Shown here piece after piece: positions 1,870 through 64,000 of a DNA stretch of 64,000 nucleotides; the stretch's first letter is position 1; every line of letters begins with the position of its first letter. The translations under genes and the position numbers were made by a program. The stretch lies in NCBI GenBank assembly GCA_002633005.1, contig NMRA01000393.1, positions 234,034 to 298,033 on the forward strand. The letters are read 5' to 3'. Under the pieces are notes generated by a model. That model was not told where the DNA came from. It was given only the letters and a program-made list of their open reading frames with translations, and did no database searches. Source of the stretch: Phoronis australis. Taxonomy: Eukaryota; Animalia; Phoronida.

Positions 1870-2670
1870 CCCAAGCCTTGGCCCAAAGCTGTATACTAAA
1901 TATAGGCTTACAGGTTTGAGCCGATATGGGTAAAAAATGGACAAATAAAATCTGACTCAAAATTAATGTCATTAAAACTAATCTCATCCTTGTGTAAACC
2001 TAGGAAACAGGGTCCTTGAGTAAACTAACTTCTGTATTTACCGGTGTTGGAAAAGTTAGCGATCCTTCATCGGCTGCTGTTAAAATTGTGATGTGCTCTC
2101 TTGAGTCAGCTTTTTGCGATTACGTCACCTGACCTTTATCAGTTTCTTTTCCCCCGATTCTTTTATCAAGTGTTCGTCGCTGACGGTACCTATAGGTTAC
2201 GTACATGTTATAACAAATTATCGGAACTTGTTTCATTTTGTTACAAGTTTTTAGTATTTTTATACCAGCAAACTGTATTTCAAAACAACCTTGGTGCTGC
2301 GAAGCTGTCATCATGTCTCGAAAGACGTCTCAATTTTTAGGAAATGGCATGTGCGCCGTGTCACGAGCGTGCTGTTTTTGAAACGACGACACACTTCTTT
2401 GTTAAAAAGGCGACAAATTATGCTACCAAATGACGTTTATTTGATTGTTTTCCACTTAAACGGCTGCAACGAACAATGGGAGTGCCGGGTAACTACCAGA
2501 TTTTGCATGTGCCCCCGCCGGTCCGTTAGCTTTATATGTTGATGTAGCCTAAGCTTTACGACGAGGTGACGAACACAAGTCAACTATACCCAGGTAGTCA
2601 ACGGCTGTCTGAAATTTCGGGGTTAACGGAGCTCAAATAACAGTGGTAAGATAGTCTTCATACAGCTGTA
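1870..2670 (+). repeat. Dispersed repeat, diverged paralogue of 60795-61712
   Basis: Colinear similarity, e.g. aatgacgtttatttgattgttttccacttaaacggctgca vs aatgacgtttattgcattgtttttcacttaaacggctgca, and a shared gtcttcatacagc end. Confidence 0.8.
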
Positions 2671-6299: not shown

Positions 6300-9110
6300 C
6301 ATCAAAATTCACCATATTTCATAAAAATCTGTCAAGGAACTTCAAACAAACAAAGGAAAAACAAAAAAAAATGAAATTGCCACATTAGGGGGCACAGCGT
6401 CAACCTGAAAGCTGTCGTCTATTGTTATCTTCATATAAATACACTTACTTATAATGATCCTGCAGTGAGTTTAGGAGATACAGCTATGGGCGCAAAACAA
6501 AACTACCACTAAGAGGCACCACAGTATTCAAAGCCGACATCGTCAACGTTCTCATCACACTGAAAACATATACGCCAATTTTCAAAATCATTCTTAGAGT
6601 GGTTTGGTTGATAGAGAGGTGGACGCTTAAAAAACAGACTCAAAAACAGTAAAGCAAAATACCTCGAATCCATCCAAAAGTAGCAGGATAGCGTCCTCTC
6701 ACTAATACATGCCTTAAATCTGTCAAATTTTATGAAAATCCGTTGAGGACCTTTGAAGATACAAAGGTTAACGTAAAAACTAAAATTGACACAAGGGGGC
6801 GCAACTGTAGTCCGATCGATGTGAAAGTCGTCGATGTTCTTTCCCAACATCATATAAATATACTTGCAACATTTAGTAAAAGATCCTGCAAATGGTTTAG
6901 GAGATACAGCCATGGGCGCAAAAGAACAAAATTGCCACTAGGAGGTGCCACAGTAGTTGAAGTCGTCAGAAAATCATCGTCATCTGCCCTCTTTACAGTA
7001 AGAACAAATATGCCAATTTTCGAAATCATACCCAGAGCGGTTTGGTTGATAGAAGGGCGGACGCAAAAAAAAAGATTCGAAAACAGTAAAAATGGCCACT
7101 AGGTGGCGCAAAGTATCTCAAATCCACTTGAAAACGAGTGGATGGTATCATAGATGCCTAACTGCCAACTTTTATGACAAGAGCAACGCAGAGCGTTGAA
7201 ATGCGCCCACAATTGCACCGCATATGGTATCCTTCTAGGGTTGTTTATTGGTACCATAAAGTGGCCAGTAGGCTGTACTTTGCAAAATGGAAAGGCATGG
7301 TCATTGTCTCCTCAATAGGCTAGGGGCAAAATGTGAGTAATCTTCATAATACAAGCACATCCTATACACCAGTTGCTTAAAGCACCACAGAAACATAGAA
7401 TTAAAAACAAATTCACCAACATACGAGATTAGCACAGCATTAGAATGCCAGAAACAAATTTCTACTTGGAACTTTTCCTTCACAGTCACGAAGTAACACA
7501 AAGTATACACCTGAAGACCTATGAAAATACAGAGGTCAATGTAAAATACTAAAATTGCCACTAGAGGCAAATACTAAAATTGCCACTAGAGGCATACCGG
7601 TAATCAGAATCATCCTAAAGTCGTCATCGTCCGTTGTCAACATCACATAAATACACTTGCTAAATTTAGTAAAGATCCTGCAAACGGTTTGGGAGATACA
7701 GCCATGGGCGCAAAAAAAAAAAACTGCCACTAGGAGGCGCCACAGTAGTCCAAATCGTCTGAAAATCATTGTCAGCTGTCTTCCTTATAGTAAGCACATA
7801 CACGCCAATTTTCACAATCATCCTTTGAGCGGTTTGGTTGATAGAGGGGTGGACGCAAAAATACAGACTCGAAAACAGTAAAAATGGCCACTAGGTGGCG
7901 CAAACTACGTCGAATCCATCTGAAAACAGTAGGATAGCGTCATCTCACTAATAGGTGCCTACATACCAAATTTCATGAAAATCCGTTCAATACTTTTGAA
8001 GATACAAAGGTAAGCGTAAAAAACTAAAATTGCCACTAGGGGGCACACCGGTAGTCGGATCCGACCAAAAGTCGTCATCTTCCGTTGTTAACATCATATA
8101 AATATACTTACACAATTTGTAAAGATCCTGCGAACGGTTTAGGAGATACAGCCATAGGCGCAAAAAAACAAAACTGCCACTAGGAGGCGCCACAGTAGTC
8201 GAAATCGTCGGAAAATCATCGTCAACCATCCTCTACATAGTAAGCATATACATGCCAATTTTCACAATCATCCTTCGAGCGGTTTGGTTGATAGAGGGGT
8301 GGACGCACAAAAACAGACTCGAAAACACTAAAAATGGCCACTAGGTGGCGCAAACTATGTCGAATCCATCTGAAAACGGCACGATAACGTCATCTCACTA
8401 ATAGGTGCCTACATATCAAATTTCAAAATAATCCGTTCAGGACTTTTGAAGATAGAAAGGTAAGCGTAAAAAACTAAAATTGCCACTAGGGGGCACACCG
8501 GTAGTCGAATCCGTCCCAAAGTTCGCACATGCCGTCCCATTCATGAATGGAACATATGTGCCAAATTTCATGAACGTATGTCAAAGGGTTTTGGAGATAG
8601 AGCAGCGGACGCCGGACGCCGGACGGACGCCGCCCGGACGGACGGACGGACGGACAAAGATGACTGCATAATGCGTCCACATATAAATATGTGGGCACAT
8701 AAAAATCCATTGAGGACCTCCAAAGATACAGAAGTAAGCATAAAAAACTAAAATTGCCACTTGGGGGCACATCAGTAGTCGGAGAGGTCTGAAATTTGTT
8801 GTCATTCGTCGTCAGCTTGATAGGAGCACATTCTGCCACATCTCATAAAGATCCTGAGTGGTTTAGGATATACAGCTGCGGATGCCGGACAACGGACGCC
8901 CGGACAGAGATATATATATGCGACCACAGCGCATAATAATCATCACATTAGGTGGCACAGAGGTTGCCCGATCGGTCTGAAACTCGTCAGCTGTCACCAG
9001 CTTCATAGGAACAAATCTGCAAAATCACATTAAAACCTTGCAAGGGGTTTAGGAGAAACAGCAGAGGCAGCCTGACGCCCAGACAGAGAGCATGTCACGC
9101 ACACATGTAC
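6300..9110 (-). mobile_element. Nest of non-autonomous Helentron-like (HINE/DINE-1-type) elements; the complete youngest copy spans 7177-8700
   Basis: Terminal acaagag plus stem-loop CAACGC-aga-GCGTTG (7184-7198), subterminal inverted repeat atgcgcccac (7201) / gtgggcacat (8691), hairpin ccacatat-aa-atatgtgg, (GGAC)n microsatellite 8607-8655 and internal ~450-bp higher-order tandem core. It is inserted at an AA/TT site within an older copy of the same family. Confidence 0.8.
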
Positions 9111-13519: not shown

Positions 13520-14803
13520 ATTAGACCTTCTCCTGTAAGTTAAAGTTGTCATCGTCAACCATCCTCTTCGCACTGAGAATATACACGCCAATTTTCAAAA
13601 CCATACTTAGAATAATTTGGTTGATAGAGGAGTAGACACCAAAAAACAAGACTCGAAAACAGCAAAAATGGCCACTAGGTGGTGCAAAATACCTTGATTC
13701 CATCCGAAAACAGGAGGATAGCATCACGTCACCAATAGAAGCCCGTATTCAAAATCTTATGAATATCTGTTGTCAACATCAAAAAACACTTGACAAAGAT
13801 CCTGCAAATGGTTTAGTAGATACAGCAATAGGCGAAAAAATGAAACTGCCACTAGGAGGCGCCACAGTAGTCGAAGTCATCAGAAAATCATCACCACCCG
13901 TCCACTTCATAACAAAAACATACATGCCAATTTTCACAATTATTCTGAAAGCGGTTTGGAGGGGTGGACTCCAAAAAACAGACTCAAAAACAGTAAATAT
14001 GGCCTCTAGATGGCGCAAACTAGGTCGAATCCATTTGAAAACACAAAGATAGCGTCACCTCACTAACAGAAGCTTGTACACCAAATTTTATATGTTGACG
14101 ACCTTTGAAGATACAGAGGTAAACATAAAAAAATAAAATTGCCACTAGGTGGCACACCAGTAGTCAGATCTGTCCGAAAGTTGTCGTCGTCCGTTGTCAT
14201 CATCATATTAATTCACTTAGTACTAAATTTAGTAAAGATCCTGCAAATGGTTTAGGAAATATAGCCATAGGCACAAAAAACAAAACTGCCACTAGGAGGC
14301 GCCACAGTACTCGAAGTCCTCAGAAAATCATCGTCAACCGTTGTCTTCAAAGTAAGAACATACATGCCACTTTTCACAACCATGCTTAGAGTGGTTTGGT
14401 TGATAGAGGGTTGGACGTTAAAAACACATTCGAAAAGAGTAAAAATGGCCACTAGGTGATGCAAACTATGTCGAATCCATCAGAAAATGGGGGGATGCCG
14501 TCGTCTCACTAATAGATGCCTATATACCAAATTTTGTGAAAATATGCAGAGGACCTTTGAAGATACAGAAGTAAACGTAAAAAAATAAAATTGCCACTAG
14601 GGGGCACACCGGTAGCCGGATCCGTCCGAAACTTCGCTCATGCCGTCCCATCCATGAAAGAAGCATGTGAGCAAAATTTCATGAACATACGTCAACCAGT
14701 TTTGGAGATAGAGCAACGGACGCCGGACGGACGCCAAACAGACGGACGACGGACGGACAGAGATGACGGCTAATGTGTCCACATATAAATATGTGGGCGC
14801 ATA
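13520..14803 (-). mobile_element. Helentron-like non-autonomous element, same family as 7177-8700, truncated at the stem-loop end
   Basis: Same core subunits (gccactagg..ggc), (GGAC/AGAC)n tract 14717-14760 and terminal hairpin gtccacatataaatatgtgggcgcataa. Confidence 0.8.
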
Positions 14804-14967
14804 ACAGTGAACTGTAAGTTTGTTCCAAGCCTAGCCATCACTCCTCTGTGAGTAGTAAGTAAAGACCTGAATCTTACATTCTACGAAGTGGTCCCAATCA
14901 AAAGGTAGTTACTTGACAGAAGGCAAGGAAAACACCCTGTTACACAATTAATGCAGTTGTACAATCT

Positions 14968-15306: not shown

Positions 15307-17218
15307 TTTAACAACCCATCAAACGTTATGTAACTAAACACCATACGTTAGTATTATAGGTTATTAGGAATTACATCAATGTAAATAAACAGTGCTTAAT
15401 TGTTTTCTGTAATTAACATTTTGAATAAAACTAGTCTCAAAGGAAATGCCTAATTAAGGAAAAATGTCTCAGTTCACAAAATGATGAAAATTCTACCTAC
15501 CGGTCACCATCAAAAGCATCCCCAACCCTGTTGGATGCCCTCATTGGCTCTGCATCAAGTAGCGAAAACTAACACTTTGTGCACTGGAGAATATGTTCAC
15601 ATACGTTCAAATCACTGACAGTTTCACTAATAAATTAAAACGCTATTGAAAAAGCTAGTATGTTTGCCAAACAGACGGTTGTACACAAAATTGATGTCAA
15701 AACTGGCTGCTCTAAATGGATGATGAACAAAACTTCTTACCCCTGCACATGGTGTGTCCTTTGAAGTAACGGTCTGACTACAAAAGTGCCGGTCCCAGCT
15801 GTTTGAGGTAACTAAAGTCTTCGGCATTTAGTAAAAGAACCATTAAAGGTTACACACTGTTCAAATCACTGGTATTATTGCTACTTCATAACAGCAAAAG
15901 CACTTTGCAAAAGGGGTGATGGTTAATAAGAATCTAACAACAATGCAAAAATCCAATAAAAAACAAGCTACACACACATATGTAACAGGAAACACCTGGT
16001 TGTAACCAGTAGCAGAAGGTGTAGTTACAAGGTTGCTAGGAGACCAGAGCCATATTATCAAGGTGCTTATTCAAGTCAAAGAACAGGTGGTTTGTTACCA
16101 TTTGATCTGGGTTCTTCTAATAATCACATGTGATGAAACATGATTGGCTGTCTCTGATAACAACTGACAACTTTGTTGTTCACAGCACTCACTTGACTGA
16201 CAAACTGACTCATGCAGTGATGTGTGCAAAGGATGTGAAAGTTAGCACTCTCCATCATCATTTTTCAGTGTCATTTGGCTGTCTAAACAGAAAACGCTGA
16301 TATAGCCCACAATCTGCCTTCCTTAAACAGCCTCCAACACAGATTACCCCATGCCAAAAGATCTCTTCCTATTAAGATCAATCAATTTCTAGAAGTGCAT
16401 CACCAATCAACAGTGAAGTGATCTTTCTCATTGGCTTCACTACTCAACCAGCCCCCATCAAATTTAAATTGTTTAGTGATAACAGGATCATTGAAGTTAT
16501 CAATAGGAAGTGCAGCGACTACCGAGAGGATAGAAATACTATATGTGAATTTTTTAAATGTTGTTTACGTATTTTAAAAACAACTAAAATGAAATGCTTA
16601 TAGAAGTTGGTTGTTCTTCATTTATTATACACATAAATAATTGCCAAAATTTTCACATTTCAAGGACAGGTTATTTTGTTGTTGGAAACGTTTCCCATGT
16701 AGATTTACACAGTCGGTGAAAACCAAGCTAATATAGACCAACATTATCTCATAATTTTATTGTGAAATTTGACAAACTATTGATGTGCCATTTGTGCTTA
16801 ATTGGTGGACAACAGTTAATATTTTAACCAAATTTCTACACATTTCTGAGACAACACCTGCTGTTCATGATGGCAACATGTGCTGATAACTTCAGTGACA
16901 CCCAGCGGCCCAAGTTAAGTGTTTCCACTAGTCCCACTGCCAAGTAAATCCACATGTTTACTGCAAAGTATTTAGCATTCTCACAGACTAAGTATTCCTC
17001 TAAACACTGAAGTCAGAGTTAACCACAAGTGGTTCCATAGGTTTACTATAAATTGTAAAAAATGTATAAACCATTATTATTCAATATTTTCCATTTACCT
17101 TTTTGATCAAGCATAATTATAATCAGGATGTTTTAGGTATTAGGCCTGATAAGAACAGATATTGATGTTATGACTGAACTGATTAAACTTGAGGTTTAAT
17201 GGCACGCTGTAATAAACA

Positions 17219-17620
17219 TGGTGTTCCTTCGAAGCTGGAATCCCGGTGTAAAACAGATATCCCGGAGTCGAAAACAGACTTCCAAACATTCAAAACAGTT
17301 AACCAGCCCAAAACACAAACCCCAACCTTTAAACAAGAACCCCAGGGATTGGACAGGAAACCTGGACAATTTTTTTAGGTCTCTGGGTTTCCTGTTCAAT
17401 CCCTGGGGTTCCTGCTTTAAAGGTGGGGGTTTGTGTTTTCCGGGCTGGCTAGCTCAGTTTTGAAGGTGCAGGAACCTGTTTTCCACTGTGAGATATCTGT
17501 TTTACACCGTGAGATATCTGTTTTACACCGTGAGATATCTGTTTTACACCGTGAGATATCTGTTTTACACCGTGAGATATCTGTTTTACACCAGGGTTTC
17601 TGTTTCGATGGAACACCCTA
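17219..17620. mobile_element. MITE with ~40-bp TIRs and an amplified 21-bp subterminal repeat (second copy 18790-19588)
   Basis: Left ggtgttccttcgaagctggaatcccggtgtaaaacagatat; right atatctgttttacaccagggtttctgtttcgatggaacaccc. The unit ctgttttacac(c/t)gtgagatat occurs about 6 times here and about 25 times at 19047-19560. Confidence 0.75.
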
Positions 17621-19912
17621 ATAAAGAACCTGCATGGTTTGACAGAAGAAAATCCTTAAAATTGATGACAGCCTGATGGGAACTACAGTTAACATTTCCT
17701 TAAAGGACTGGGTCATTATGCCATCTCATCACATTTCATTTTCTTTATTCAGGACATGCGAGTTTTTTTGTAAACCACTTTCATCATAATTTGAGACATC
17801 TTGCTTGAACCATGACTTCTCAAGTCCATCAAACTTACAGGCATGACCCTGAAAAGAAAGTCGTACAATGCATACCAGTGATTTTGTCCTTGAACAATTT
17901 ACCTTCAATCTCCCTTGAAGCTATCAATCCCATCGACTGCTCATATCAATCTCACCGACTGCTCATCTTTCACTGCCCTGGAAGCAAAAAAGAAATCAAA
18001 ACTTAACAACTGGTCAGCTCTTAAAAGCAAATAACAGCCTGTAGTGAACTCGGAGCTAGGCCATGAGACAACTCTTACGTTAACATTTGGGATTTTGTTA
18101 CCCCAACGCCTAAGCGAGCCCAAGCCAGACGGCGAGCCCAAGCCAGACGNAACTAAAATGAAATGCTTATAGAAGTTGGTTGTTCTTCATTTATTATACA
18201 CATAAATAATTGCCAAAATTTTCACATTTCAAGGACAGGTTATTTTGTTGTTGGAAACGTTTCCCATGTAGATTTACACAGTCGGTGAAAACCAAGCTAA
18301 TATAGACCAACATTATCTCATAATTTTATTGTGAAATTTGACAAACTATTGATGTGCCATTTGTGCTTAATTGGTGGACAACAGTTAATATTTTAACCAA
18401 ATTTCTACACATTTCTAAGACAACACCTGCTGTTAATGACTGCAACATGTGCTGATAACTTCAGTGACACCCAGCCAAAGTTAAGTGTTTCCACTAGTCC
18501 CACTGCCAAGTAAATCCACATGTTTACTGCAAAGTATTTTTAGCATTCTCACAGACTAAGTATTCCTCTAAACACTGAAGCCAGAGTTAACCACAAATGG
18601 TTCCATAGGTTTACTATAAACTGTAAAAAATGTATAAACCATTATTATTATTCAATATTTTTCATTTACCTTTTTGATCAAGCATAATTATTATAATCGG
18701 TATTTTTAGATATTAAGGCCTGATAAGAACAGATATTGTTATGACTGAACTGATTAAACTTGAGGTTTAATGGCACGCTGTAATACACATGGTGTTCCTT
18801 CAAAGCTGGAATCCTGGTGTAAAACAGATATCCCGGAGTTGAAAACAGACTTCCGATCATCCAAAACAGCTAACCAGCCCAAAACACAAACCCCAACCTT
18901 TAAATAGGAACCCCAGGGATTGGACAGTAAACCTGGACAATTGTTTTAGGTCTCTGGGTTTCCTGTTCAACCCCTGGGGTTCCTGCTTTAAAGGTGGGGG
19001 TTTGTGTTGTCCGGGCTGTCTAGCTCAGTTTTGTAGGTGCAGGAATCTGTCTTCCACTGTGAGATATCTGTTTTACAGTGTGAGATATCTGTTTTACAGT
19101 GTGGGATATCTGTTTTACACTGTGAGATATCTGTTTTCCACTGTGAGATATCTGTGTTACACTGTGAGATATCTGTGTTACACTGTGAGATATCTGTTTT
19201 CCACTGTGAGATATCTGTTTTACACTGTGAGATATCTGCTTTAAACTGTGAGCTATCTGCTTTACACTGTGAGATATCTGTTTAACACTGTGAGATAACT
19301 GTTTTCCACTGTGAGATATCTGTGTTACACTGAGAGATATCTGTTTTCCACTGTGAGATATCTGTTTTACACTGTGAGATATCTGCTTTACACTGTGACA
19401 TATTTGCTTTACACTGTGAGATATCTGTTTTACACTGTGAGATATCTGTTTAACACTGTGAGATATCTGTTTAACACTGTGAGATAACTGTTTTACACTG
19501 TGAGATATCTGTTTTACACTGTGAGATATGTTTTACACTGTGAGATATCTGTTTTACACCGGGGTTTCTGTTTCGATGGAACACCCTAATAAAGAACCTG
19601 CACGGTATGACAAAAGAAAACCCTTAACATTGACGACAGCCTGATGGGAACTACAGTTAACATTTCCTTAAAGGAGTGGCTCATTATACCATCTCACCAC
19701 AAAATGTGAACATTTCATTTTATTTATTCAGGACATGTGAGTTTTTTGTAAACCACTTTCATCATAATTTGAGACATCTTGTTTGAACCATGACTTCTCA
19801 AGTCCTTCAAACTTACAGGCATGACCCTGAAAAGAAAGTCGTACATTATTTTTCAAAATTTACATACAAGTGATTTTGTACTTTAACAATTTACCTTCAA
19901 TATCCCTTGAAG

Positions 19913-31883: not shown

Positions 31884-33155
31884 ACAAGAGCAACGTGAAG
31901 CGTTGAAATGCACCCACGAATGCACTGCAAACGGTGTGCTTCTATGGTGTATATTTGCGTCATAAAAATGGCCATTAGATAGTGCAAAATATTTCGAATC
32001 CATCAAAAAACTGGAAAATGTCTCTGTTTTTTAACAGAAAGTTATTTATCACATTTCATGAAAAACGTCAAGAAACTTTAGCAAAACGGTAAAAATGAAT
32101 TTGCCACTAGGGGACAACGGTTCATTGGATCTGTCTGAAAGTTGTCGTCTTCCATGGCCTGAACGTCATATCAATACACTCTCTAAATTTAATAAATATT
32201 CTGTAGAGGGCTTAGGAGATAAAGGTAAGGGCGCAAAAATGCCACTAGGAAGCGCCACAGTAATTGTAGCTGGAAAATCATCGTCAAACGTCCTGTACAC
32301 ACTAACAATACATAAGCCAATTTTCACAATCATCCTAATCGTGGTTAATGGTTGACAGATTGCGGACAGCAAAAACAGACTAGAAAACAGTAAAAATGGC
32401 CATTAGATGGCGCAAAATATGTCGAATCCATCTGTAACCACTTCTTTAAAAGAAAGATATTTAACAAATTTCATGAAAATTCGTCAAGGAACTTCAGAGA
32501 AACAGGAATACAGAAAAATGAAATTGCCACTAGGGGGCAGCGTTAGTCGGACTCGTCTGAAAGTCATCGTCTTCTGTTGTTAACTTCATATAAACACATT
32601 TACTACATTTAACAAAGATCTTGTAGAAAGTTTAGGAGATATGGCCATGGGCACAAAAACAAACAAAACTGCCACTAGGAGGCACCACAGAAATTGAAGT
32701 CGTCAAAAAATTATCAACCATCCTCTTCATAGTAAGAGCATACATGCCAATTTTCACAAATATCCTTAGAGCGGATCTGTTGATGGAGCGGCAAAAAATG
32801 GACTCCAAAATAGTAAAAATGGCCACTAGATAGCGCAAATGCCTCGAATCCATCCGAAAACAAGAGGATAGCGTCACCTCATTAATAGATGCCTGTGTGC
32901 CAAATTTCATGAGAATCGGTAGAGGACCTTTGAAGATAGAGAGGTAAACGTAAAAAAATAAAATTGCCAACAGGGGGCACAGTGGTATTTGGGTCGGTCC
33001 GAAACTCTTCGCCCTCTGTCGTCAACCCCATAGGAACACACCTGCCAAATTTCAATAATATCCAGCAAGGGGTTTAGGAGATACAGCCGCAGACGTCGAA
33101 TGCCCAGACAGAGATGATGGCAATATGCACCCACATATAATTATGTGGGCGCATA
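31884..33155 (-). mobile_element. Complete Helentron-like non-autonomous element, same family as 7177-8700
   Basis: acaagag-CAACG..CGTTG stem-loop plus atgcacccac subTIR on the left; gcacccacatataattatgtgggcgcat hairpin on the right; about 8 core subunits; A-rich flanks. Confidence 0.8.
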
Positions 33156-33258
33156 ATAATAAAAGTCAGAAGAGTGATTCAATCTGGTAGTTCTCGTATT
33201 AAATTAGTCAGCTCCTCACCACATCTATGCGCAAATTCCTTTTCCCTATTCTTGAACC

Positions 33259-39104: not shown

Positions 39105-39869
39105 TGAAAACAACAAACGGTGACCAAATTAGATGTCAATAGCTTTTAAGACAGCGCTTATCACCCAGTAGTGTTGAACTACTTTATTCGAGGAGGAGCA
39201 CCTAACCGGAAAACTGTGATATTCGGTAATCAGTTGTCGATGAAGCACGTGTCATGAAGATTAACTATGGCTAGCGTCAGTTAATGAGAAAATCCAAGCA
39301 GTAGATGAGGTGGATCAATCAGACTTCTAAGTTTCACTGACGAACAAAATCTGCCACTGATTTGGCACTTAAAGTTTAAACATAAAATCAAAAGATAGCA
39401 ACCTGGCGGGAACCAAAACATAAATTTAAATCCTACGATGGTTTGGGAAATAGCCCATGACAAGGTGAACCAAAGATACCACTCTCNTGAAAACAACAAA
39501 CGGTGACCAAATTCGATGTCAATAGCTTTTAAGACAGCGCTTATCACCCAGTAGTGTTGAACTACTTTATTCGAGGAGGAGCACCTAACCGGAAAACTGT
39601 GATATTTGGTAATCAGTTGTCGATGAAGCACGTGTCATGAAGATTAACTATGGCTAGCGTCAGTTAATGAGAAAATCCAAGCAGTAGATGAGGTGGATCA
39701 ATCAGACTTCTAAGTTTCACTGACGAACAAAATCTGCCACTGATTTGGCACTTAAAGTTTAAACATAAAATCAAAAGATAGCAACCTGGCGGGAACCAAA
39801 ACATAAATTTAAATCCTACGATGGTTTGGGAAATAGCCCATGACAAGGTGAACCAAAGATACCACTCTC
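39105..39869. repeat. Near-identical ~382-bp direct duplication across the single N at 39487 (likely assembly overlap)
   Basis: 39105-39486 and 39488-39869 are almost identical. Confidence 0.85.
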
Positions 39870-44649: not shown

Positions 44650-44784
44650 AATTAGGAATTTAGGAAGGGGCGCTGAAACTGAAAAGAAAAAAGGCTCAAA
44701 TCCCGAGTTGGGTAACTGAATGGAGAAATGCAGGACTATTTTTTCAAGTTGGGGGAATTTGAAGACTCCAACATGTGCCCACTG

Positions 44785-44934
44785 TGTTGTAAATGTGCTT
44801 CGGGTGAATCATATGAGCCTCTGTTAGCTACTCGCTAACGGGCAATTGCCCATTAGTTGAATGGTTAAGCACGCTCGCCAGTTTTATGGGGGTAGCTGGT
44901 TCGATTCCCAGGTCGGGTAATCTCAGCTATTACA
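44785..44934 (+). mobile_element. ~150-bp tRNA-box-containing short interspersed element (copy 1)
   Basis: A-box-like TAGTTGAATGGTTAAGC and B-box GGTTCGATTCC; homologous to 61395-61546 and 62555-62714. Confidence 0.85.
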
Positions 44935-53556: not shown

Positions 53557-53885
53557 CAAGGCCCTCAATCCCTCAGTTTTGGGGCCAAACAACAGCCTCA
53601 TTCCCTCTGAAAAATCATGAGAAATTCCCTCAAAAGGACCAAAAATTGCTCTCAAGTGATTGAAAAATTCCCCTCGAGGCTCGAGTTTCTTGTAGCTTAC
53701 ACAGGTGATAATTTGCTAGAGCAAAAAAGTATGTTTTTTCTACTTGAAGAAGAGCCCATGAGGGATTGTAACAGTGGTGAGGGTGCTAATGATGGTGATT
53801 GAGGAGTAGAATTTTCCCCTCACACCCAAAAATTCCCCTCTCAGAAGGCACAGGCACTTTTCCCCTCGGGTGATCCATGACCCTG
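53557..53885 (-). mobile_element. hAT-like CAGGG..CCCTG MITE; relatives at 58757-59082 (+) and partially at 40350-40490
   Basis: Reverse-complement homology to 58757-59082 (atcaccatcattagcaccct, gggaattttt, ggccccaa..gagggattga). No clear TSD. Confidence 0.6.
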
Positions 53886-54781
53886 GGTTACTACACGTAC
53901 TATATTACAATTGTAATATAAGAGAGATCCATGACCCTGGGTTACTACACGTACTATATTACAATTGTAATATAAGAGAGGCCATAATCCAAAACTCTGC
54001 AAAATGAGATTTTTCATTAGTTTTTGTGCCACACACTAATTTTGCCAGAGCTGCACAAAAATTTGAAACACAGAGTGGACTGGTAAAAACACAGACATGT
54101 CTGGCCACCTACGTTGACTGAAGGAGGTTGATCCTTACAGTTGCAAACTACAGTGCTTGACATTCAGCATGTCAACTCATCAAATGCGACCTAACAAAAT
54201 TGCCATGTCACTAGGTAGAAAAACAGGGNAGGTTCGAGTTTCTTGTAGCTTACACAGGTGATAATTTGCTAGAGCAAAAAAGTATGTTTTTTCTACTTGA
54301 AGCAGAGCCCATGAGGGATTGTAACAGTGGTGAGGGTGCTAATGATGGTGATTGAGGAGTAGAATTTTCCCCTCACACCCAAAAATTCCCCTCTCAGAAG
54401 GCACAGGCACTTTTCCCCTCGGGTGATCCATGACCCTGGGTTACTACACGTACTATATTACAATTGTAATATAAGAGAGATCCATGACCCTGGGTTACTA
54501 CACGTACTATATTACAATTGTAATATAAGAGAGGCCATAATCCAAAACTCTGCAAAATGAGATTTTTCATTAGTTTTTGTGCCACACACTAATTTTGCCA
54601 GAGCTGCACAAAAATTTGAAACACAGAGTGGACTGGTAAAAACACAGACATGTCTGGCCACCTACGTTGACTGAAGGAGGTTGATCCTTACAGTTGCAAA
54701 CTACAGTGCTTGACATTCAGCATGTCAACTCATCAAATGCGACCTAACAAAATTGCCATGTCACTAGGTAGAAAAACAGGG
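53677..54781. repeat. Near-identical ~552-bp direct duplication across the single N at 54229 (likely assembly overlap)
   Basis: 53677-54228 and 54230-54781 are almost identical, including the internal 54-bp tandem pair. Confidence 0.85.
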
Positions 54782-55940: not shown

Positions 55941-56441
55941 CTAAAACTCTTCATCAGACTCTTCATCCCAGTCTATGGATTCAATCTGTCCATTGTCCTG
56001 CTCAAAATCCACCTCGATATCGTACTGAAAATCCGGATCACCTATTTTCTTCCTGTTCCTTTCAAATGACTCATCCATCACAGCTTTCTTCCTAGCAAGA
56101 ACGTCTTCATCCACTTTATTTAGGTCTTCATTTGGATCAATAGCACTGAGTTCATTGTTCTTTTTCAAACTGTCATCCAGACTAATTCCTTTCATCTTAT
56201 CTTGAATTATTGTTAACAGTTTATGAAGCTGTACAGTGGTCATATTTTCAAAGAACTTTCCATGACGAGGGTGCTGTCTTAAGTCTGATGCCAACTTATC
56301 AATACCACTGGTTTTGGTGAAGCCACGTAACGGCATTGTTCGTCGGTGAAGTTTGTCTGTCGCTTTAACACGATAGGTTATCACTATGGCTGGTGGGTCA
56401 AACTTCACTCCACACTGCTCAAGTTGATACAGTGCAGACAT
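55941..56441 (-). CDS. CEP19: Centrosomal protein of 19 kDa (RABL2-recruiting ciliogenesis factor), complete CDS in one exon
   Basis: The 166-aa ORF carries CEP19 motifs: CGVKFDPPAIVITY, RRTMPLRGF, L..HPRH, IDPNEDLNKVDE..LARKKAVMDESFERN, DPDFQYDIEVDF and C-terminal WDEESDEEF. A splice acceptor (tctgtattccag|) at 56461/56460 lies 19 nt upstream of the ATG. Confidence 0.96.
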   Translation of the reverse strand: MSALYQLEQCGVKFDPPAIVITYRVKATDKLHRRTMPLRGFTKTSGIDKLASDLRQHPRHGKFFENMTTVQLHKLLTIIQDKMKGISLDDSLKKNNELSAIDPNEDLNKVDEDVLARKKAVMDESFERNRKKIGDPDFQYDIEVDFEQDNGQIESIDWDEESDEEF

Positions 56442-57133
56442 GTTGAATCAATGGCTGGTGCTGGAATACAGACAACTGAGTAATTACCATATGTATTACA
56501 CAAAATCATTTACCAAATAAAAGAGAAAAATGTTTCAGATAAATATTATGTACTTTTCAATTATTTCCCTTCCCTCGTGAAACATGGGAAGTTGATTTTT
56601 GCCCACAATAACCAGAGGCTATTAGTAGTAAGCAGCTCAATAGATGGAGCTACACTAAAATAAAAGTGAATGTAACCTAACCGCAATTTCTGTTTTGCAA
56701 ACAACTTAACTTCGAAATCCAAATTTTACTTCACCACAGCTGTAACCTTGTTTCAAGTGACTATAAACCTGCGTTTCATCCAAGATGCGCACTTTTGATT
56801 TCGGAGCATTTACTGCTCTACAATTGGTCTCAACTTGTTCCTTATTCAGATGAGAAGTGATTTACAGGTTTGCAAAGAACAGGCAGTTCATTATTCATTG
56901 ACATTTTAGTTGGAGCTTAGAATGACACGGCATGACTAAGTCAAGTTGTAGTGCCTTATCTTAACAAAGAGTAAAGAGCCTAAAATCATCTCATTCTCTA
57001 ATTCGACTAGGGAACAATTTGAGACCAGTTTCATAGCAGCATGTGGTCTAAATCAAAAATTGACAAAGTCACTTTAGTGTCATATCCATGTAAGAAGTTC
57101 ATTTGAAGTGACATTACTAAAACAGCACCAAAC

Positions 57134-59648: not shown

Positions 59649-60495
59649 TTCAAAAACAATTTTGGGTAATTGTTTACAATATTACGACATTGACTTACAC
59701 ACATGATTTTGGTATCGTTCGATTCGTCGCAACATTATCTGTCCAAAAATATATGAATGTATCCCCTACCGCATTTCTTCCGTGTTTTATCGTCTAATTT
59801 CTGTTTGCACTATTTCCTGGCCTGAAACCGGCAAGTTAGCTCAACTCAAGACTACAGCGACACCTGTTGTTAATGAATGAAACAGCATCATTGATTCTGA
59901 ATGGTGTTTGCCGGCGCGAGATTGCCGCTTAAGTTTTCCTGACATAATATGGAGGATCAAGTGGCAACATTTCACTTTTTTCCAAATTTTTTTACAATTG
60001 TGACCATTTTTCCATGAAATTATCTTAAGTGATACCCTTTTCACCAATTTGGACATCAAAAACAACATCCGCTTTTTTCGCGGATTCTTGCTAGCAGATG
60101 CGTACCAGGATCACCATAGGATCGAATTCCAACCCTTGGGACCGTAACTAGGGCAGTGGATAGACGTGTCTCGGTCAATTTGAACTCATGAAAAGTGACA
60201 ATCTGCAGAAGTCGGTAGATTAATTTAGTTTTTGACCACCATGTGACTCCTTCCATTCAACATGGCAGTATTTACTCTAGAGTACCGAGAAATAGTGCGA
60301 GCAGAAATACTTAGGTAACGGGGTAGGAGAAATTTTTGTGCATTTTTGGAAAGATAAAGTTGCAAGGAATCGAACGATACCAAAGACAAAGTCATATGTG
60401 TAAGTCAATGTTGTCATATTCTAAATAATTACCCAATTTTGATAAGTTGGGGGTGGATGCTCAAACTAAACATTCGATCCAGATGAATGCCCAGG
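59640..60495. mobile_element. ~850-bp element with long (~170-bp) diverged TIRs
   Basis: ttgggtaatt..gacattgacttacacacatga..ttggtatcgttcgattc..gcaac..tatct.tccaaaaat is mirrored at 60340-60440. Confidence 0.7.
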
Positions 60496-60794
60496 TATCT
60501 ACATTGAGATCAGACTTTACGTGCAAATTTTGAACAGAGTTGAAGTGTAGTGACAGTGAGACTGATATATTTTAGTGAATTCGACCTGTCTCTGCTGCGC
60601 TGACCTTCTGCCGCACGCATCCGCTATCGGCATCGAAAGACGACAGTTGTTGGCCTTGGAGACTGCCGACGTTGGCTGTCGCGGCCCGTATGCCGGTGCT
60701 GGCCGAAGGGCGCAACATGAATATTCGGCACTGGTCGAATATAATGAGAAAGCCGAGAACCAGTTTCATCTACTTGACTTGGCTGAACCGGTGG

Positions 60795-61712
60795 TAGCCT
60801 TGGTAAAAAGCTGTATATAAATATACAGCTTTGCACCGATGCAGGTAAAAAAGTGGTAAGATAAAATCTGCCACAAAATTAGTGTCATTAAAAACTACAG
60901 CCTTGCTTGAGTAAATTAAATTATTTAACGGTGTTGGCAAAAATGGCATTCTACCGTTATTCTGCTGCTAAAGTTGTGGAGCGATCTTTAGTGATGGCTT
61001 TCAGCGCCATGAAATTTTGCGTCACATATTGGCCAGCTTCTTTTTTCGCCGATTCTTCAATCAACTGTTGTTTTTTCACAAGGTTGCGTACACGTCACAA
61101 TAAATTATTAGAACTGGTTTCACTTCATTAAAAATTTTAAGAATTTTGGTACCAAAAAATCGAATTTCAGGAGAAATTTTGTTGCTGCCAAGCTATCATC
61201 ATCTCCCGAGAGACGTCGCAAAAATTTAGGAAATGGCGCGTGCATGTGACACGAGCGTACTGTTTTCAAAATGACGAAATACTTATCATTGTTAGAAAAG
61301 GCAGAGAGCTACGCAAGAAAATGACGTTTATTGCATTGTTTTTCACTTAAACGGCTGCATGAACGGGCAAGGTGAGTGTCGGTTGACTCCCAGATGTAGT
61401 AATAGCCGAGATTACCCGACCCGGGGATCTAACCCGCGACCCCCATAAAACCGGCAAGCGTGCTAACCATTCAGCTAATAGGCAATTGCCCGTTAGCGAG
61501 TAGCTAACAGAGGCCCATATAATTCACCGGAAGCACATCTACAACACAGATTTTGCATGTACACCGTCCGGTCTTTAGCTTTACATGTTGATAAAAGTTT
61601 CACGGCGCGCTGACGAGCAGAACTACACTGGCTGCGTGCAATTTCGGGGTCTACGGAAGAAATACATGCAGTGGTACCTAGCTGTATTTTGAAGACAGTC
61701 TTCATACAGCCA
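60795..61712 (+). repeat. Dispersed repeat paralogous to 1870-2670, interrupted by the tRNA-box element
   Basis: Colinear similarity on both sides of the 61395-61546 insertion. Confidence 0.8.
61395..61546 (-). mobile_element. 152-bp tRNA-box-containing element (copy 2), TG..CA ends, 4-bp TSD
   Basis: caga|TGTAGTA...TACAACA|caga; empty site accaga|ttttgc at 2495-2506. Confidence 0.9.
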
Positions 61713-61950: not shown

Positions 61951-62554
61951 TATAAAACATAGAGCAGTCTAAAAAGCAATAATCAAGAAGCTGTTATTAT
62001 TTTTAAAAAATATAGTATTTAACTAAAAAATATACTTTATTTATAAGAAAAAATATTTTAATACCGTAAAAATATAAAATTATTATATTCATAATAAAAT
62101 TATTTGTATATTTGTGTTTAATATTTTATATGTTTTAAGACAGTCATGCGTATTTGAGTCGACAATGGACGGAAGTCGCTGCTTTACTCCGGGTGCTGGC
62201 GTAAAACTTTCACCGCTGGAGGATTAACAAGGTTGATTTCTTGCTGCGCACGTTCATTTAGCTGTTTTATTACAATTGTGATAGCTATTGTACGAGAGGT
62301 TTTTAGTTTCTCTGTATCTTCCAGGAGGACAACCTAGGTTCTTCCGTCTGACACTTTGTTCTCTCATGAACCAAGCTGCACCAAGCACAACAACAAAAGC
62401 AGGTTCTCAAATCGGGAGAATTTCACTGTAGTTTGTAAACTAGTGTAGTCTTTGTGGGAGAATTTCACCGTGTCAGGAGATCTGGCTCAGGGACACATAA
62501 ATCTCTCGATCTGAAGTATTTGATTTCACATATTTGAAAATTAAATTTTGCTAA

Positions 62555-62714
62555 TCTAGTATTCTAGTAATAGCCGAGATTACCCGACCCGGGAATCGAA
62601 CCAGCGACCCCCATAAAACCAGCAACCGTGCTAACCATTCAGCTAATAGGCAATTGCCCGTTAGCTAGTAGCTAACAGAGGCTCATATGATTCACCGGAA
62701 GCACATCTACAACA
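62555..62714 (-). mobile_element. tRNA-box-containing element (copy 3)
   Basis: Intact A box TAGCTGAATGG and B box GGTTCGATTCC on the minus strand; flanked by ctaa on both sides if the duplicated terminal tctagta is included. Confidence 0.85.
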
Positions 62715-64000
62715 CTAAATTCCCAGAAAAGAGAAAAAATTGATTTGACATTCAATCATGTAGTAAAGTCTAAGGCATCTTGAATTCTGGTCATCCTCGG
62801 TCCGAGCTGAATACATCTGGTTGGTGTGCAGTATGGTTATCTTAGCACGTGTATCAGCCACATGGCTGCTTAATATTCATGTTGTGCCCTCACTGGCCAT
62901 TACTGGCACGATATGGGCTGGAAAGTCAATGTCGGCATTCTCCAAGACGAAGAACAGTCGTTTTCCGATGCCAACAGAGGCGCGGCTGAAAGCCAGCACA
63001 GCAGTGAGACAAGTTAAATAACATCTCACTACACTCTCCGCCGTGTTATTTGATTAGAGCTGAAACGTAACAGAGAAGTCATTTTGATTTCTAAGGCGAG
63101 CCAATTCCTACACCAGCAGTCATTGCACAACAGAAAGTTTAGAAATAACCGTGACCATCTGTGCGCTGCCACAATGCAGTGCGACGTATAATTGTTAAGG
63201 GTCAGCATATACTACTGTACATATATTGATAACGTCTCACTACATCAATAACAATGCCGAGGTGAAGTTCTCCATGTGTTTTTTTGTTACTTGCTTTGTA
63301 TGTTCAGTGTTTTGTATCATCTACTGTTGTTATTGATTTACAACAGTATTGTCAGGTTATTTTCTTTCACTAGAGTTGAAAGGTCATGATCACTTGTCAA
63401 ATCAAATCAACCTGGTCAATTTTTAATTAGTGCTGTCAATCCTAGTAATTTTTCAAACTCTATTCAATGGTGTCAATCTTGAATATTCCCTGATTGAATA
63501 CTTTTTTCCACTAAGAACGTGAAATTCATTCTCGAATTGGGACTACTAGTATTTCTCCAGATTAAGAAAAATTTCACCCGATGAGGAGAATTCACCCTGA
63601 TCAGAAGAAATTCTCATAATTTGAGTACCTCCTTGGCTTCTGCTGTCGATTTTCAACTCGCCTTTGTTCAGTTCTTGTCTCTTAAAGTGCCAGAGGTAAT
63701 GCTACGCTGGACAACAGACAACTTTGTTGTATTGTTGCAATGTATTAACAGCTAAATTGGTTTCAATAATTGTTTTTGAGTCACTTTCAGGACTAGAACT
63801 ACAGGTGTGTATGTGTGCTTATAGTCGTGCAGATATTCCCACGCTTACTACTACACTTACAAATATTGCTGAACTCAGAGAATTTTCTGTTGCACTAAAG
63901 AAACATTTGCACAGTTTGACCATTCTTCAATTCTGGTATCCCAACTTTCTATGAATTGTTGTACGCCACCTTGTGAATGAACGGATGATTAGAGAATGTG

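Follow-up and report, generated by a model that had tools for sequence, protein, structure and literature searches.

What kind of mobile element ends in TGT..ACA and carries a tRNA-type promoter within about 150 bp? The question was raised by positions 61395..61546 of a 64,000-nucleotide stretch of the genome of Phoronis australis (contig NMRA01000393.1; the whole stretch is hereafter the window), in which an earlier note had seen either the solo LTR of a miniature retroelement or an integrase-mobilised, Ginger-like MITE, with a tRNA SINE as a caveat. The three copies in the window are best read, with a probability of about 0.86, as solo LTRs of an LTR retroelement with a decayed tRNA-type promoter, most likely a short, non-coding TRIM of the Helenus type moved by Gypsy enzymes. 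This identity is based on TGT..ACA ends, 4-bp TSDs in two of three copies, boxes A and B at tRNA spacing, and a PPT and a PBS in sister copies.

Copies and Target Sites

BLASTN with positions 61391-61550 as query revealed three copies in the window (GC content 38%) that were 90–95% identical, the two further matches lying at 44782-44933 (90.1%, E 6e-55) and 62565-62715 (94.7%, E 3e-65). The next-best match in the window (E 0.027) was a self-palindrome, and a profile built from the three copies found no fourth one there. Pairwise, the copies differed at 8–15 of ~150 aligned sites, and BLASTN and alignment confirmed the earlier report that all three share the fixed 5′ end TGTTGTA. Copy 1 (44785..44934, + strand) is a solo LTR of 150 bp ending in TATTACA. 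Copy 2 (61395..61546, − strand), a solo LTR of 152 bp, reads TGTTGTA...TACTACA in sense orientation, and read ends pile up at both of its limits. Copy 3 (62555..62714, − strand), also a solo LTR, measures 160 bp, its 3′ end being mutated and carrying an 8-bp duplication. The TG..CA termini are intact in copies 1 and 2, and the 3′ ends of the three copies are not uniform (TATTACA, TATTACTACA and one duplicated end).

Copy 2 is flanked by the 4-bp TSD CAGA on the left (61391..61394) and on the right (61547..61550). It lies in one member (60796-61592) of a pair of host repeats; in the other member (1874-2543) CAGA occurs once, at 2497..2500, so that the empty paralogous site proposed earlier for copy 2 held up. 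The two members are ~69% identical copies of an abundant, transcribed older repeat. The empty form was also found as a 156-base skip (152 + 4) in 8 + 4 contigs and in 46 + 36 RNA reads. The description of copy 1 as being without a perfect TSD was borne out in the TG..CA register, and the overall TSD picture had to be amended for copy 3, which also has a perfect 4-bp TSD (TTAG in sense orientation; 62551-62554 and 62715-62718), located behind its duplicated end. A 4-bp TSD was therefore present at two of the three sites examined. Since copies 2 and 3 each have their own TSD, the possibility that they are the paired LTRs of one element was rejected.

The exact register is ambiguous from the window alone, because each copy has a G just ahead of TGT. 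If the start is moved back by one base, copies 1 and 2 both show 4-bp repeats, and TSDs of 3–5 bp can be read in other registers. The window thus allows a shifted register, but the piles of read ends at 61546 and 61395, among the rows listed, favour TGT..ACA. The G directly 5′ of TGT at 44785, 61546 and 62714 (ACTG, TCTG and TTAG) could reflect a target preference of the integrase (n = 3).

Sequences Abutting the Element Ends

Junctions were analyzed in four runs carrying the same species label, from at most three samples and two studies, and come from one read-mapping result; X1 and X2 are DNA contigs (Logan), X5 and X6 are RNA reads, and all totals include the flanking host repeat. Among the rows listed, breaks immediately before 61395 were found in 43 of 2403 contigs (X1), 39 of 1903 contigs (X2), 100 of 1287 reads (X5) and 98 of 1103 reads (X6), and breaks behind 61546 in 29 contigs (X2), 61 reads (X5) and 74 reads (X6). 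Because the breaks at the element limits fall at 61395 and 61546, TGT..ACA are the modal ends among the rows listed.

The majority neighbours of the element in X5 and X6 agreed at 27 of 30 letters on each side (hand count). These neighbours are plurality letters of mixed reads, with an agreement of 0.37–0.51, and their match indicates that, in a considerable share of the reads, each end is bordered by a common sequence. The 14 nt directly before TGT were purines at 14 of 14 positions in X6 and 13 of 14 in X5 (agreement 0.44–0.51), constituting a PPT. After ACA, a 2-nt spacer was followed by 14 nt of which 13 were complementary to the 3′ end of mature tRNA-Ser (agreement 0.43–0.44), and the sequence downstream of ACA is accordingly taken as a primer-binding site for tRNA-Ser. 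A scan with a tRNA-end pattern made of the PBS-like letters and a T-loop returned 117 loci, which come from other organisms, with 116 ARAGORN calls; 105 of the 116 were tRNA-Ser and 75 ended exactly at the motif. A second round of tRNA calling on 40 loci gave tRNA-Ser for 35. Because the pattern included the T-loop, the tRNA-likeness of the matches follows by construction; the scan is informative for the isotype and for the terminal position of the motif.

In the DNA contigs, the PBS and PPT neighbours were faint and partial, as expected if many solo-LTR flanks count once each. Five contigs (two in X1 and three in X2) lead from an LTR start back to an LTR end; they are known as junctions, with the letters between not given, and look as an LTR-internal-LTR arrangement would. 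A complete two-LTR element was not seen as sequence in contigs or reads, and no PBS or PPT motif was found in the window. The summed contig depth, which is not a copy number, suggests thousands of copies. An exact 28-nt scan of metagenome contigs gave no matches, and neither did the tRNA-end pattern in viral contigs.

These neighbours bear on three other readings. The TGT..ACA ends, with a 6/7 inverted match, and the 4-bp TSD would suit a Ginger-like or other MITE moved by an integrase or transposase. Ginger elements and MITEs are defined by terminal inverted repeats and have no PBS or PPT; here no TIR extends past 7 bp, and common PBS and PPT neighbours would be unexpected, leaving this part of the earlier proposal without support and very improbable. 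SINEs, too, lack both PBS and PPT and have TSDs of variable length. If the element were a LINE-mobilised tRNA SINE whose 5′ leader is unusual and whose tail is (TAC)n, this would account for the differing 3′ ends of the copies (TATTACA, TATTACTACA and the duplicated end), for copy 1 being without a TSD and for the alternative registers of 3–5 bp. Nevertheless, read ends pile up at one 5′ and one 3′ base (among the rows listed) with PPT-like and PBS-like neighbours abutting, and 62 nt of fixed leader stand before tRNA position 1. The read-junction data thus largely refute an ordinary SINE, which we consider hardly credible. A SINE is expected to start at the tRNA head and to have a LINE-like tail (PMC10886601, introduction), and published Helenus LTRs, among those in the supplement of that paper, also end in both -TATTACA and -TACTACA. 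The PPT directly before TGT and the tRNA-Ser PBS after ACA in sister copies identify the element as an LTR instead.

The solo LTRs might also derive from a longer element, autonomous Gypsy or LARD-like, with a tRNA-like block in the LTR by chance. The PBS, the PPT, the TG..CA ends and the 4-bp TSD fit such an element equally well. Against it, five single Logan contigs span from LTR to LTR, which would be easier with a short internal part; the size and layout of the LTR match published TRIMs with internal parts of 43–621 bp, as given in the available portion of PMC10886601; and the processivity of Pol III favours short elements (PMC10886601, section 4.1). We judge a longer element to be improbable. 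The reading placed first in the earlier note, a miniature retroelement's solo LTR that has captured a tRNA promoter, is therefore supported by the PPT and tRNA-Ser PBS that abut its ends, the size of the element and the use of Pol III being set apart.

The RNA-seq reads showed no sharp RNA start or end, and element RNA may be read-through from host transcripts. A peak in RNA depth over LTR positions 68-103 was dropped as support for the predicted R, given that the DNA contigs peak at about the same place; it is probably an edge effect. Strand asymmetry of the reads was kept out of the argument because the library type is unspecified.

The tRNA-Like Block

In sense orientation, the LTR comprises TGTTGTA, a 62-nt leader, box A at LTR positions 70-80, a run of four T's at 97-100, box B at 113-123 and a short tail, with a one-base shift after box A in copy 1. 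In copy 2, the box A-like motif TAGCTGAATGG occupies 61467..61477 (−) and the box B-like motif 61424..61434 (−). The T4 run, the only one of the LTR, lies between the two boxes at 61447..61450 (−) and may act as a weak Pol III terminator; downstream of the tRNA-like block the LTR has no T run. The U5-like tail contains a short inverted repeat, GTAAT-n7-ATTAC, at 61399..61415 (−). The distance from T8 to G53 is 44–45 nt, placing boxes A and B at tRNA spacing. The boxes quoted in the earlier note were recovered in part: box A was exact in copies 2 and 3 only and box B in copies 1 and 3 only, so that copy 3 has both boxes intact, copies 1 and 2 keep one each, and copy 2, the focal one, has a mutated and thus damaged box B.

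The tRNA-like block is not a working tRNA. ARAGORN called no tRNA genes in it, Rfam gave no tRNA match at E ≤ 1, the acceptor stem pairs at four of seven positions and the T stem at two to four of five, and folding z-scores were +0.3 to +0.6.

Relationship to Helenus and Other Elements

Helenus (TRIMp3) elements are TRIMs with tRNA-derived sequence in their LTRs. They have been found in six animal phyla, and the animal families have 4-bp TSDs, solo LTRs and PBSs resembling those of Gypsy; mobilisation by Gypsy and multiple origins were proposed for them, and their Pol III activity is not validated (Kojima 2024; PMC10886601). A later meeting report, in its available portion, only restates the finding (PMC12859917). 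The animal tRNA analogue of Cassandra that the earlier note proposed, implicitly as new, has thus already been published as Helenus. Bivalve Helenus elements use tRNA-Ser primers (PMC10886601), and the LTRs given in the available part of that paper for bivalves, brachiopods and nemerteans measure 104–193 bp.

The phoronid element resembles Helenus in its TG..CA LTR of ~150 bp, made of a leader, a tRNA-like block with boxes A and B and a short tail, and in its 4-bp TSD, solo LTRs, PBS for a tRNA 3′ end and PPT. Helenus is recognized by box A (TRGCY..YGG) and box B (GGTTC) in the LTR, by a PBS after the 5′ LTR and a PPT before the 3′ LTR, and by a tRNA-like block unlikely to be a functional tRNA. 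In the phoronid element, both boxes and such a block were present, and PBS and PPT were found in two RNA samples as plurality letters. Among the animal Helenus families in the supplement of PMC10886601, none matched the element sequence by eye, and a string search of that supplement with six element motifs gave no matches, although line wrapping can hide matches. In its available portion, the paper also documents two differences: the PBS fits the tRNA-Ser end found here, unlike the two bivalve tRNA-Ser PBS types of its Figure S2, and most listed LTRs have a T run after the tRNA block, whereas the only T4 of the phoronid element lies between the boxes. The element most likely represents a new, unlisted Helenus family. 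Such a family would bear on repeat annotation and on false tRNA calls.

Cassandra of plants and Ajax of nemerteans also have a small-RNA-derived Pol III promoter inside the LTR, and Cassandra starts and stops inside its 5S sequence, much as the phoronid element would within its tRNA-like sequence; both, however, are derived from 5S rRNA rather than tRNA, and Ajax has 5-bp TSDs (PMC10886601). Like tRNA SINEs (SINE2), the element has a box A/B head that has lost the ability to fold as a tRNA.

Proposed Cycle and Predicted Leader Hairpin

In the proposed cycle, Pol III would initiate near LTR position 63 in the 5′ LTR, pass the weak T4 (97-100) there and continue through the PBS, the internal region and the PPT until it terminates at the T4 of the 3′ LTR, so that an R of ~38 nt would be present twice in the RNA. 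Minus-strand synthesis would be primed by host tRNA-Ser and plus-strand synthesis by the PPT, and integration by a Gypsy integrase would produce the 4-bp TSD. Recombination between the two LTRs would then reduce the element to a single LTR still framed by its original TSDs, the state of copies 2 and 3. The PBS, PPT and TSD steps are those of the standard LTR cycle (PMC10886601), while we infer the Pol III steps.

Folding predicted a long RNA hairpin at LTR positions 38-88 (61459..61509, −) that joins the leader to box A and encloses the palindrome GGGCAATTGCC (61481-61491, −). The small hairpin GTTAGC-n5-GCTAAC (61492-61508, −) is its rival. The sequence of this small hairpin, reported in the earlier note as GTTAGC-tactc-GCTAAC, is present, but pair probabilities predict that it loses to the longer hairpin using the same arm: in all three copies, the mean probability of the core pairs was 0.90–0.99 for the long hairpin versus 0.00–0.08 for the small one. 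Whole-LTR folding z-scores were only −1.9 to −2.1. The long hairpin is predicted to end 8 nt short of the T4. Because its 5′ arm precedes the predicted start, it could fold in the 3′ LTR only.

A comparable hairpin module before box A was recognized by eye in Helenus families in the supplement of PMC10886601, including LTR1_LCh, LTR2_Lch, LTR-11_DR and Helenus-1_CGi, as well as Helenus-5_PeMa, -4_ArIr, -1_MoPh and -1_LiLo. The module consists of a GCTAR arm, a short self-complementary core and a TTAGC where box A begins; immediately upstream there is a second sequence with which the arm could pair instead. Among the LTRs in the supplement it recurs by eye, with differing core letters, in coelacanth, cypriniform fish, oyster, scallop, mussel and nemertean elements; one 9-nt module motif occurs 12 times there by string count; and the module is absent, by eye, from the Lingula families and several bivalve Helenus families of the same supplement. 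This comparison was made by eye and with string counts. The words "hairpin" and "palindrom" do not occur in the available text of PMC10886601, figures aside.

The shared module admits a joint proposal, which we advance tentatively and consider possible but rather unlikely as a whole: that the phoronid family and the coelacanth, ostariophysan fish, bivalve and nemertean Helenus elements that have it belong to one ancient or horizontally spread lineage instead of separate SINE captures, and that the module senses position for Pol III termination. The upstream hairpin arm, lying in U3, would be transcribed only in the 3′ LTR, where a complete long hairpin 8 nt before the T4 might turn a leaky Pol III terminator into a working one. 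Such a switch would allow readthrough of the terminator in the first LTR and a stop at the identical terminator in the second. In yeast Pol III assays, as described in the available portion of PMC9278858, a T4 terminator becomes stronger with a hairpin 0 or 7 nt ahead of it, but not with one at 18 nt. For human Pol III, the accessible part of PMC13385618 gives an increase in T4 termination from 52% to 73% with an adjacent hairpin, an effect that drops with distance. Arguing against a termination switch, folding allows the small D-arm hairpin to form in the 5′ LTR transcript of copy 3 too, RNA-seq was without sharp ends, and in most published families, among those in the supplement, the T run follows the tRNA block, too far away for the same effect. 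If the hairpin is conserved in structure across animal Helenus elements, it would speak against the proposal that those families arose several times, and would offer a handle on how RNA with terminal redundancy is made by a Pol III retrotransposon whose two LTRs are identical.

Other Features of the Window

An uninterrupted CEP19 reading frame was found at 55941-56447 (−; PF14933, E 1e-46), whose best named relatives are from chiton, bivalves and annelids (57–60% identity). In a CEP19 tree, from which 4 short rows of 41 were left out, the phoronid sequence stood outside the pteriomorph bivalve cluster with weak support and an unsettled bootstrap, and the tree assigned it to no phylum. By its CEP19, the host is probably a spiralian.

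Further repeats were present in the window. Three clusters (6307-8950, 13542-14804 and 31884-33156) of one repeat family contain units of ~430–450 bp that are 70–89% identical, and 59657-60441 holds a MITE-like element whose inverted arms are long (55 nt at 85% and 80 nt at 76%). A pair of near-perfect tandem duplications at 39105-39869 (383 bp, 99.5%) and 53677-54781 (552 bp, 99.6%) are either very recent or assembly artefacts, and a larger duplication at 16582-19162 is 94.6% identical. Inverted GC-rich segments at 60584-60725 and 62872-63014, which are 73% identical and flank copies 2 and 3, are possibly host-element ends or paralogous exons.
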